The position numbers and the translations under genes were made by a program. From positions 1 to 5,288 of the forward strand of contig CAZXEQ010000013.1 in NCBI GenBank assembly GCA_964640155.1: DNA of 5,288 bases. The letters are read 5' to 3'. This DNA is from an uncultured bacterium (GTDB lineage: Bacteria; Auribacterota; JACPWU01). The notes under the pieces are model-generated. The model ran no database searches and was not told where the DNA came from. It saw nothing but the letters and a program-made list of their open reading frames with translations. Each line of letters begins with the position of its first letter. Positions within the stretch are counted from its first letter, which is position 1. Shown in pieces: positions 1 to 4,971 of the stretch.

Positions 1-111
1 TATCTATTCTTCTCACCATTCCCCCTGAATATTCGAGAAGATTTAATTGCAAGAATTCAGAAAACCAAACGCCATTATTATAGAGCGGTTAAAGAAAGAT
101 TGTCAATGTAG
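1..111 (+). CDS. Possible 3' end of an unidentified protein-coding gene (partial; 5' end lies outside the window)
   Basis: Frame 1 is open from the window edge to TAG at 109-111. It translates to YLFFSPFPLNIREDLIARIQKTKRHYYRAVKERLSM*, a charged amphipathic-helix-like tail. Frame 3 is also open for 27 codons, so frame choice and coding status are uncertain. I recognise no family. Confidence 0.3.
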   Translation, partial: YLFFSPFPLNIREDLIARIQKTKRHYYRAVKERLSM

Positions 112-125
112 TAAAGATTCTGATT
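111..125. repeat. Left copy of a perfect 15-bp direct repeat, GTAAAGATTCTGATT
   Basis: An identical 15-mer recurs at 385-399, 274 bp downstream. The first base is the G of the TAG stop at 109-111. Confidence 0.9.
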
Positions 126-129
126 TATT

Positions 130-151
130 CTAACCCCAGACGATTGGTACA
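130..151. repeat. Left terminal inverted repeat of the element
   Basis: ctaaccccagacgattggtaca pairs with 356-379: 10 bp plus a 2-nt bulge, a 4x4 internal loop, then 8 bp including one G-U. Confidence 0.7.
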
Positions 152-355
152 CATGGATAAGTATAGGGGGCCATCAAGCTACACTTGATGAGATTCGGAC
201 ACTCAACTCGTCTATTGTCCAACAGAGTGTGAAGACCATTGGAGATCAAGCGAGCAAGGTCCCCGATGTTCATCGGGGGAGCAAGATCTCCTTTGAGTTC
301 ATTTACCTCGCTGGGGTAAATGAACGTGTCTGAACACTCTGTTGGACAATTTACC

Positions 356-379
356 TGTACCAGGTGGCTGGGGGGTTAG
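356..379. repeat. Right terminal inverted repeat of the element
   Basis: tgtaccaggtggctggggggttag is the imperfect reverse complement of 130-151. Confidence 0.7.
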
Positions 380-384
380 TACAG

Positions 385-399
385 GTAAAGATTCTGATT
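385..399. repeat. Right copy of the perfect 15-bp direct repeat, GTAAAGATTCTGATT
   Basis: Identical to 111-125. Confidence 0.9.
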
Positions 400-427
400 G
401 TTAAGAGGCCCTTTATTTCATTAAAAT
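398..427 (+). promoter_or_regulatory. Candidate sigma70-like promoter upstream of lemA
   Basis: TTGTTA (398-403), an 18-nt spacer, then TAAAAT (422-427). This places the transcription start only about 1-2 nt before the ATG at 436, giving a leaderless or near-leaderless mRNA. That conflicts with use of the weak GGTGG Shine-Dalgarno at 428-432, so the call is tentative. Confidence 0.25.
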
Positions 428-1002: not shown

Positions 1003-2715
1003 TTGAAAAAATCATCCAGAATTCTTTTAGGAATTTGTTCTCTTGTTTTTTTATTTTCCCCTAATCACATTTTTGCTTGGGCGATTGACTCTTTTACTGT
1101 AGAGGCGTGGATTCAATCAGACAGGACAGTGACAGTGAAAGAAAGAATTATTGCTGATTTTACCCCTGATGAACATCATGGTATTTATCGCTATATCCCA
1201 CTGTCCTATATCAATCGCTTGGGCCAAAGTTTTCGTTTAAGAATGCATGTCGACGAATTAAAAAGCTCTCAAGATAAAGACCAATACTGGAAATCCTATT
1301 CCGGAGGAAGACTCTATATTAAAATAGGAAATCCAAATTTAGAATATAAAGGATTAGTCGGATACACTCTTCAATACACCTTACAGAATGTCATGACAGA
1401 TTTTCCTTCTCATAACGAGCTTTACTGGAATGTAACGGGCAATGAATGGAATGTTCCTATTCGAAAAGCAAAATTTATTATTCATTTGCCACCTGAATGC
1501 AAGAATCAAACGGTTCAATATGCTGCTTTTGTGGGTATGATGGGCAGTCGTGACAATACGAGCATTCAAGTTGAGAGGCGTGGACAAGAAATTGTTTATG
1601 AAGTGATGCGACCTTTGCAAGCTTATGAAGGACTCACAGCTGTTTTAGGTGTTCCTTTGGGAATGTTAAAGCAGGTCTCTTTATTTCAAAAGGTGAAATG
1701 GTTCTTCCAGGATAACTGGCCTTATGGAGCTCCTCTTTTGGTTTTCCTTTTTCTTTTTCTGAAATGGTGGAGGCACGGAAAAGATCCTCAAGGCAAAGGA
1801 ACAGTGGCGGTGACCTATGAGTCTCCGAATAATTTGACCCCAGCAGAAATAGGGACCTTGATTGATGAAAAAGTGGATATGCGTGATATTACGGCAACTT
1901 TAGTGGATCTTGCAGTGAAAGGGTATCTTAAAATTGAAGAAGAGGAAGACAAAGATTTTATTTTTAGAAAAACAATTCCTAAAATTGAAATTTCTATAAA
2001 GCCGCATGAAAAATTTATTTTGGATCATCTTTTTTTATATGGAGATTCTTGTAGACTCTCTGGCTTGAAATATAAATTCTCAGCGGATTATCTAAAGCCT
2101 ATTCGAGAAAGAATTTATCATTCTTTGATTGCACAAGGGTATTTTACTCATTCTCCTGACATCATACGAAAAGTATATCGTTTTGGAGGTATATTTTTGA
2201 TTGTTCTAGGGACGATTTTAGCCATATTGTTTTTTAACATTCCCCAACTTTCATGGATTGCAGCTCCTGTTCCTTTGGTGGTGAGTGGTGTTTTGAGTGG
2301 ATTGCTTTTCTTTATTTTTGCTCCTTTAATGCCTAAAAAAACAAGGGCAGGGGTGGAAACTTATGAAGAAATCAGAGGATTGGAAGAATACATTGCAAGA
2401 GCAGAAGCAGAAACATTTCAAAAGGCAGATCCAAAATTACTTTTTGAAACATTGCTACCTTTTGCAATTTCTTTTGGTCTAACAAAATCATGGATTAATA
2501 AATTTTCTAATCTTTTTCAAGATCCTCCTCAGTGGTATTCCTCTAGATCTTATTCCGCTTGGAATATGAATTATTTTTCTAGAAGCCTCAATCAAATGGA
2601 ACGTTCTTCAAGTCAAACATTCACTGCAGTCCCACGAACTTCAGGAGGCAGTGGATTTAGCAGTGGTGGATCTTCTGGTGGAGGATTTGGAGGAGGCGGG
2701 GGAGGGGCGTGGTAG
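1003..2715 (+). CDS. DUF2207 domain-containing membrane protein (the usual LemA partner)
   Basis: TTG start with a good SD. Signal-peptide-like N-terminus (MKKSSRILLGICSLVFLFSPNHIFA/WA). Extracytoplasmic N-domain of about 215 aa. TM segments near aa 243-257, 394-413 and 419-443. Gly/Ser-rich C-terminal tail SGGSGFSSGGSSGGGFGGGGGGAW. This architecture and the adjacency to lemA are typical of the DUF2207 family. Confidence 0.88.
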   Translation: MKKSSRILLGICSLVFLFSPNHIFAWAIDSFTVEAWIQSDRTVTVKERIIADFTPDEHHGIYRYIPLSYINRLGQSFRLRMHVDELKSSQDKDQYWKSYSGGRLYIKIGNPNLEYKGLVGYTLQYTLQNVMTDFPSHNELYWNVTGNEWNVPIRKAKFIIHLPPECKNQTVQYAAFVGMMGSRDNTSIQVERRGQEIVYEVMRPLQAYEGLTAVLGVPLGMLKQVSLFQKVKWFFQDNWPYGAPLLVFLFLFLKWWRHGKDPQGKGTVAVTYESPNNLTPAEIGTLIDEKVDMRDITATLVDLAVKGYLKIEEEEDKDFIFRKTIPKIEISIKPHEKFILDHLFLYGDSCRLSGLKYKFSADYLKPIRERIYHSLIAQGYFTHSPDIIRKVYRFGGIFLIVLGTILAILFFNIPQLSWIAAPVPLVVSGVLSGLLFFIFAPLMPKKTRAGVETYEEIRGLEEYIARAEAETFQKADPKLLFETLLPFAISFGLTKSWINKFSNLFQDPPQWYSSRSYSAWNMNYFSRSLNQMERSSSQTFTAVPRTSGGSGFSSGGSSGGGFGGGGGGAW

Positions 2716-4301: not shown

Positions 4302-4342
4302 GAGAAGTACCTTTTAGAACTTTTTTACAGTCTAAATAGAGT

Positions 4343-4415
4343 TAAGAACAGGCTAAGAGTTAAGTGTAAAAGAAAAATACTTTTACTTAGCCCTTAACTC
4401 TTAGCCCTGTTTTTA
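4343..4415 (-). terminator. Long imperfect hairpin between pal and the LysM gene (possible terminator, attenuator, or REP-like element)
   Basis: Outer stem 4348-4364 / 4393-4410 is 17 bp with one bulged C4405, extendable by 5 more pairs to 4343/4415. Inner stem 4366-4372 / 4380-4386 is 7 bp with loop aaaaata. In the pal sense, the flank after the stem is only moderately U-rich. Confidence 0.45.
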
Positions 4416-4419
4416 TTAA

Positions 4420-4971
4420 TTATTGAGCAGAAACCAAGAAATGAGCTCTTCTGTTTTTGCTCCAAGCATCTTCGTTATGAGAAGGATCTAAGGGTTTTTC
4501 TTCTCCATAACTGACAGTGTGAAGACGGTCTGTGCTGATCCCTAATCCTGTCAAATATCGACGAACGGAAAGGGCTCTTTGTTCACCCAAAGCAAGATTA
4601 TATTCATTAGAACCTCGTTCATCGCAATGCCCTTCAATCATCAATTGAACATGGTCATGGCCGTTTAACCAGTTTGCGATTTTTTCCAGAGTAGAACGTC
4701 CTTCAGACCCGATGTCGGACTTGTCATAATCAAAGAGAACATCTGCGAAAACAAGTGGATCATTAGGCTCTATGAAATTTCCCATATCAGGTTGTTCGCC
4801 TAGAGGGATGTCTTCGCCTCTTAAAGCAGAAGCTTGTAAATCGTCCCCAGCAATACCTGTTCCCATGCCTTCAGAAACAATACCTTTTTTCTTCTTGGCG
4901 CATCCCTGGAAGCTTACTGATAAATAGCAAATACTGGTTAAAACCAAAAGACTCAAAATCAATTTACGCAT
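4420..4971 (-). CDS. pal: Peptidoglycan-associated lipoprotein Pal (OmpA-like C-terminal domain)
   Basis: Signal sequence plus a probable lipidation site (SFQGC, Cys24). Canonical Pal/OmpA block: FDYDKSDI...MIEGHCDERGSNEYNLALGEQRALSVRRYL...SYGEEKP...AWSKNRRAHF. Strong SD AAGGGGGA lies 5 nt upstream. It starts 13 nt after the tolB stop. Confidence 0.95.
   Translation of the reverse strand: MRKLILSLLVLTSICYLSVSFQGCAKKKKGIVSEGMGTGIAGDDLQASALRGEDIPLGEQPDMGNFIEPNDPLVFADVLFDYDKSDIGSEGRSTLEKIANWLNGHDHVQLMIEGHCDERGSNEYNLALGEQRALSVRRYLTGLGISTDRLHTVSYGEEKPLDPSHNEDAWSKNRRAHFLVSAQ

Follow-up and report, generated by a model that had tools for sequence, protein, structure and literature searches.

A probable MITE-like insertion with a strongly folded inner domain between two divergent promoters of a Candidatus Auribacterota genome

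The stretch of DNA analysed here (the window, 5,288 nt) encodes LemA, a DUF2207 protein, a DsbD/CcdA-type membrane protein, a LysM protein, Pal/OmpA and TolB. Its nearest public relative, as judged by DUF2207 (78-79% identity), is contig JAYRIK010000047.1 (L012/L014) of a Candidatus Auribacterota MAG, in which the order of the genes is identical. LemA starts at ATG 436, and a further gene lies upstream of it on the minus strand, with its start near position 21 of the window. Homologues of the L012 counterpart of this upstream gene carry the inverse-autotransporter beta domain PF11924; a search with the upstream gene retrieved no close orthologue. A fully conserved stretch of 24 nt (18-41) corresponds to the leader and ribosome-binding region of the gene. 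Two other gene models were considered for this end of the window and rejected, namely an upstream plus-strand gene ending at TAG 109-111, since the conserved gene is a minus-strand one, and GTG 364 as the start of LemA, since both the orthologue and the gene call on a Logan contig begin at ATG 436. The GTG-364 extension of LemA is a product of the insertion described below.

Farther along the window, the spacer between Pal and LysM (window 4332-4427, minus strand; L012 4522-4638) holds a long imperfect hairpin, GGGCUAAGAGUUAAG...CUUAACUCUUAGCC, with a z-score of -3.9 in the window. Its stem sequence is almost base-for-base conserved in the Auribacterota relative, the Rfam match to MIR1888 at this site is weak and far below threshold, and the hairpin may be an intercistronic terminator, an attenuator or a processing site. 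The C-terminal tail of DUF2207 is glycine/serine-rich (SGGSGFSSGGSSGGGFGGGGGGAW, window 2641-2712), and an AAATATC-type short tandem repeat follows the gene at 2716-2745, where both Logan contigs of the species end.

The subject of the present analysis is the spacer between the upstream gene and LemA, where a block of 259 nt (126-384) is bounded by perfect 15-nt direct repeats. The block carries terminal inverted repeats (TIRs) and lies between two promoters that point in opposite directions. The features of this region are the following:

77-106, minus strand: sigma-70 promoter of the divergent upstream gene, TTGACA-18-TATAAT, 12/12 consensus, conserved in L012
111-125: left direct repeat GTAAAGATTCTGATT (target-site duplication), 15/15 identity with 385-399
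126-151: left TIR, 5'-TATTCTAACCCCAGACGATTGGTACA, which includes the 5' arms of helices P1 and P1'
214-350: Y-shaped inner domain of 137 nt, in which helix P3 closes the hairpins P4/P4' (241-291) and P5 (297-325)
356-384: right TIR, given as reverse complement, 5'-(C)TGTACTAACCCCCCAGCCACCTGGTACA; the end reads ...GTACA-G
385-399: right direct repeat, 15 nt, identical to 111-125
398-427, plus strand: LemA promoter-like site, TTGTTA-18-TAAAAT, with the same hexamers and spacing in L012

The TIRs are imperfect, 26-28 nt long and matched at about 78% of positions. Their layout is bipartite: a terminal T(A/G)T is followed by a CTAACCCC block and, at about position 20-28, by TGGTACA; the two latter blocks are common to both ends, and the ends of the element read TGTNCTAACCCC...TGGTACA. 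Both copies of the direct repeat are found within 5 nt of a TIR. The left terminus is TAT and not TGT, and at the right end ...ACA is separated from the repeat by an extra G (384); if this G is counted, the duplication is 16 nt long with one mismatch, and otherwise it is 15 nt long and perfect. The GC content of the block, 48%, is higher than that of the adjacent spacer (34%) and of the remainder of the window (38%). It may be added that TTTACC (350-355) is able to pair with GGTAAA (384-389) across the junction of element and duplication.

Both promoters fire away from the block, the -35 box of LemA has 2 nt in common with the end of the right repeat, and the block fills what was formerly a gap of 17 nt between the two -35 boxes. 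Owing to the duplication, both promoters retain their native upstream bases, which fits an insertion that is tolerated, and each of the divergent promoters is left with its own copy of the repeat. The -10 box of LemA (TAAAAT, 422-427) ends 8 nt ahead of ATG 436 in the window and in the relative alike; judged from this position, the LemA mRNA is probably leaderless or near-leaderless.

The same site is empty in the closest relative. The spacer upstream of LemA in L012 measures 155 nt and does not contain the block, and the window without 126-399 is collinear with it but for some short indels, of which the largest, at the very site of the insertion, gives L012 8 extra nt. L012 carries there a single, shifted version of the 15-nt repeat, and the alignment reveals no residue of the block. 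In three more distant relatives the LemA upstream spacers are 52-141 nt long and likewise hold no such block. We considered an excision footprint in L012 and rejected it, as the 8 extra nt are a local tandem duplication (AAGATTCT / TAAGATTC, L012 715-745, against window 107-125) and not a residue of the element. This tandem duplication indicates that the spacer between the promoters is made up of short repeats of the GATTC type, possibly an operator common to both divergent promoters. Only short Logan contigs represent the same species elsewhere. One of them, L001 (SRR8893623), is independent of the window and contains an identical right junction, which shows that the insertion did not arise in assembly. 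This contig begins inside the element, at window position 292 between P4 and P5, and not at a boundary, a break most simply ascribed to low coverage, although it could also reflect a repeat or a variant in the sample.

Seven nested helices had been described in this block by an earlier note, which proposed that they form a novel structured RNA. All seven are present on the plus strand, where they appear in the centroid structure and add up, as had been noted, to 68 bp:

P1, 130-139/368-379: CTAACCCCAG / CTGGGGGGTTAG, 10 bp plus a GG bulge
P1', 144-151/356-363: TTGGTACA / TGTACCAG, 8 bp
P2 hairpin, 172-178/184-190 (172-190): CATCAAG / CTTGATG, 7 bp, 5-nt loop
P3, 214-230/334-350: 17 bp, perfect; extended, 23 nt with 91% complementarity
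P4, 241-247/285-291: GGAGATC / GATCTCC, 7 bp
P4', 260-267/272-279: TCCCCGAT / ATCGGGGG, 8 bp, GUUC loop
P5, 297-307/315-325: GTTCATTTACC / GGTAAATGAAC, 11 bp, 7-nt loop

Folded as RNA, the plus strand of 126-384 has an energy of -109.2 kcal/mol, where dinucleotide-preserving shuffles average -74.3 (z -6.9), and none of 200 shuffles was as good. The best-defined part of the fold is the inner domain 214-350 (-74.3 kcal/mol, z -10.1), whose minimum free energy (MFE) structure accounts for 14.5% of the ensemble. Its P3 stem begins with the 17 perfect pairs and continues through a tandem GA mismatch (231-232 / 332-333, GA/AG on the plus strand) into 4 further bp. The region that contains P2 (152-213) does not go beyond its shuffles on either strand (z +0.2 on the plus and -1.4 on the minus strand), and P2 alone is thus without weight. 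The inner domain lies off the axis of the TIRs, with symmetry centres at 282 for P3 and 254.5 for the TIRs, in agreement with the values given before. Moreover, a global alignment of the block with its own reverse complement is good only at the TIRs and at the arms of the P4/P4' hairpin, which bears out the previous statement that the fold is more than a single long palindrome.

Attempts to find relatives of the block were extensive and negative. Rfam returned no match in 100-410 on either strand, even at E<=10 and with lax short-query filters, and nothing in the element when the whole window was searched at E<=1; as the earlier note had supposed, no described RNA family accounts for it. Collecting homologues by BLASTN/nhmmer-type searches, which the same note had proposed, yielded no relative in any collection searched. 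A 19-mer from the P3 arm, which matches both arms, had 0 matches in a collection of 185,579 species with one genome apiece, from which the source MAG is absent, and a single match in JGI metagenomes, in unrelated high-GC sequence and attributable to chance. In viral contigs the P3 arm gave six single-arm matches, all due to chance, and the hairpins P4' and P5 as well as a gapped TIR-to-TIR pattern gave chance matches only. Plasmids and phages searched by blastn in 'distant' mode contained no match to the element, and nhmmer, blastn and a covariance model of the P3 domain, run over 1.3-1.4 Mb of related loci, recovered nothing other than the element itself. Likewise, the TIR-like ends of a possible partner insertion sequence (IS) had no match in 1.4 Mb of related loci.

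The block is also without coding capacity. Its six-frame translation matched none of 5.8 billion proteins at E<=10, and the exact 47-aa ORF has no record. Stop-free frames run through the element at 124-330 (plus strand, 69 codons) and 133-375 (minus strand, 81 codons), neither with a protein homologue; against 1.84 billion representatives, the 81-codon frame had a single chance match to a tandem-repeat protein.

TIRs, an exact duplication on the two flanks, an orthologous site that is empty in the relative, a foreign GC content and the lack of coding capacity together make up the signature of a non-autonomous DNA transposon. We therefore consider that the block 126-384 is probably a small, non-coding, non-autonomous MITE-like transposon that inserted between the divergent promoters. 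A transposase encoded elsewhere would bind the two imperfect TIRs of 26-28 nt and join their ...ACA-3' ends to a target cut with a stagger of about 15-16 bp, and repair of the gaps would yield the flanking GTAAAGATTCTGATT duplication. The strong fold would then be a consequence, at the level of DNA, of the TIRs together with the 137-nt foldback domain carried as cargo. The window encodes no transposase that could be tied to the element.

Among known elements, bacterial MITEs such as Correia/NEMIS and MITEAba12 share with the block a length of about 100-300 bp, the absence of coding sequence, TIRs and a target duplication, as well as an intergenic, promoter-proximal location and a strong predicted fold if transcribed. 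The small size, the lack of coding capacity, the TIRs, the duplication and the empty site in the relative are all MITE properties. Multiple copies, the defining property of a MITE, were not found in the collections searched, to which the source genome does not belong. The block further differs from bacterial MITEs in its unusually long duplication of 15 nt and in an internal domain that is off-axis and composed of several helices, where theirs is a single long hairpin; the cargo of MITEs is typically simpler than this domain. Tn3-type TIMEs, IS630/TA elements, IS200/605 PATEs, integron attC sites, retrons and Xer-dif sites were considered and rejected, as their ends or duplication lengths do not fit.

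The length of the duplication and the TRT...ACA ends best resemble the long-duplication subsets of the IS481 and IS1202 (ISTde1) families of DDE transposases. IS1202/ISTde1 elements produce target-site duplications (TSDs) of 15-17 bp and have TGT...ACA ends, imperfect TIRs of 22-29 bp and a second conserved TIR block near position 20 (bioRxiv 10.1101/2022.12.17.520857; PMC10132070), and part of the IS481 family has TSDs of about 15 bp (PMC10045372). Elements of the ISTde1 group occur in many environmental phyla (bioRxiv 10.1101/2022.12.17.520857). Compared by these described features, the block agrees with IS1202 (ISTde1) and long-TSD IS481 elements in the length of the duplication, the imperfect TIRs and the block near position 20, but it has no transposase gene, its left end is TAT and an extra G stands at its right junction. 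Because of the left TAT and G384, the fit to IS481/IS1202 termini is only approximate.

What the inner domain contributes to such an element may be answered in several ways: it may be cargo, a nested repeat or a protein-binding inverted repeat, and a functional RNA or single-stranded DNA structure is the least likely option on present evidence. A nested repeat is the basis of a composite explanation, in which an outer MITE of about 122 nt (126-213 and 351-384), the older of the two, was invaded by a younger foldback element (214-350), so that two unrelated palindromes lie one within the other. The perfect 17 bp of the inner repeat, set against outer TIRs matched at about 78%, suggest that the two differ in age, and both the displacement of the inner domain from the outer axis and the lack of significant structure in the outer remainder 152-213 agree with such a history. 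However, no target duplication surrounds 214-350, a single T being common to both sides, and the 19-mer of the inner arm has no related match in the species genomes or in the JGI metagenomes. In addition, the collinear motif ATTTACCT...GCTGGGG is present twice, in P5 (301-316) and at the outer right end (349-373), and the P5 hairpin thus resembles a shortened copy of the right end of the element, which ties the inner part to the outer. We regard the composite history as unlikely.

Less probable again is the reading from which the analysis started, that the element carries, or is, a plus-strand gene for a structured non-coding RNA with the P3-closed three-way junction as its functional core. 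The exceptionally well-defined fold of 214-350 speaks for it, as does the lack of a known family that would account for the block. The plus strand is, moreover, the more stable in absolute energy, by 3.7 kcal/mol over the whole element and by 6 kcal/mol over the P3 domain. This edge stems from three G.U pairs and the tandem GA/AG in P3, which are favourable on the plus strand only; the sequence confirms both wobbles noted before (T144.G363 and T260.G279), and P5 is extendable by a third (T308.G314). All four non-Watson-Crick positions favour the plus strand, but the chance of such agreement is about 1 in 8 (p ~0.125), and a one-sided bias at four positions is a hint, not evidence. Relative to shuffles, the minus strand folds as well, with z-scores of -8.05 for the whole element (-105.5 kcal/mol) and -9.4 for the P3 domain (-68.3 kcal/mol). 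Nor does the context favour a gene for RNA. A consensus scan, which is not a measurement of expression, detected no promoter-like site on the plus or the minus strand of the element, and the one terminator-like hairpin that it found (273-296) is weak; with both flanking promoters directed outwards there is no evident route to a transcript. With no homologue in the collections searched there is no covariation to draw on either; the TIRs, the perfect duplication and the empty site mark an insertion of DNA, and a block that is missing from the closest relative is not a conserved gene. The nested fold, its distinction from a simple palindrome and the lack of a match to known RNA families stand, and the claim of an RNA gene finds no support in the strands, the promoters and the marks of insertion. 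None of the observations that the earlier note had named as speaking against an RNA has been made, so this reading is unproven and disfavoured by its context, not disproved; on balance, we hold it to be improbable.

A related idea confines the function to the inner part: the Y-shaped domain would be a strand-specific functional nucleic acid, either RNA or single-stranded DNA recognised by a recombinase, carried on a mobile element of an uncultured phylum and belonging to a new class without a described relative. The bridge RNA/seekRNA of IS110 and the omega RNA/reRNA of IS200/605 offer a parallel in that they, too, are multi-helix non-coding segments on mobile elements. Those RNAs, however, adjoin the gene of their recombinase, the block has no match in Rfam, and IS110 and IS200/605 elements are not known to make a long target duplication. 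The chance that the domain is of this kind appears slight.

The block might not be mobile at all. It could be filler DNA that arose once through repair or replication slippage, or an ancestral segment that the relative deleted between the 15-nt repeats, recombination between which could remove such a block. Only two genomes are alignable here, so the change is not formally polarised as a gain or a loss, and the block is a singleton in every search. Against both versions stand the TIRs within 5 nt of both copies of the repeat, a GC content foreign to the surroundings, the site in the relative without any residue of the block and the absence of the block from the more distant relatives as well, and we consider either version very unlikely.

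An integration machinery of another type is at the far end of the scale, be it a casposase (Cas1-type) acting on a miniature casposon or a recombinase whose attL/attR cores would surround a heavily deleted integrative element. Tyrosine-recombinase core sites of a length similar to that of the 15-bp repeats are known, which counts in its favour. Casposons, which are large DNA transposons, carry genes for a Cas1-type casposase and a PolB-like polymerase, and the A. boonei casposon lies beside a tRNA gene, with duplications of exactly 15 bp adjoining its TIRs (PMC5137440). This last feature is the only one in common, and the explanation is highly improbable, as the window contains no cas1 (casposase), polB or integrase gene, the target lies between two promoters and is not tRNA-adjacent, the termini resemble the TRT...ACA ends of DDE-type elements, and a 259-bp remnant with matching TIRs is not expected after deletion of an integrative element.

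The case also has a bearing on how such folds are read. A very strong nested fold and a blank in Rfam do not by themselves argue for an RNA gene; more was learned here from the duplication on the flanks, the empty site and the geometry of the promoters. The inner domain would represent a new class of RNA only if it were transcribed and conserved. If the preferred interpretation is correct, the block would be a routine case of a small mobile element whose presence between two promoters is tolerated. It would also be a first repeat element noted in Candidatus Auribacterota and would derive, in miniature form, from the long-duplication IS481/IS1202 transposases, which are poorly studied.
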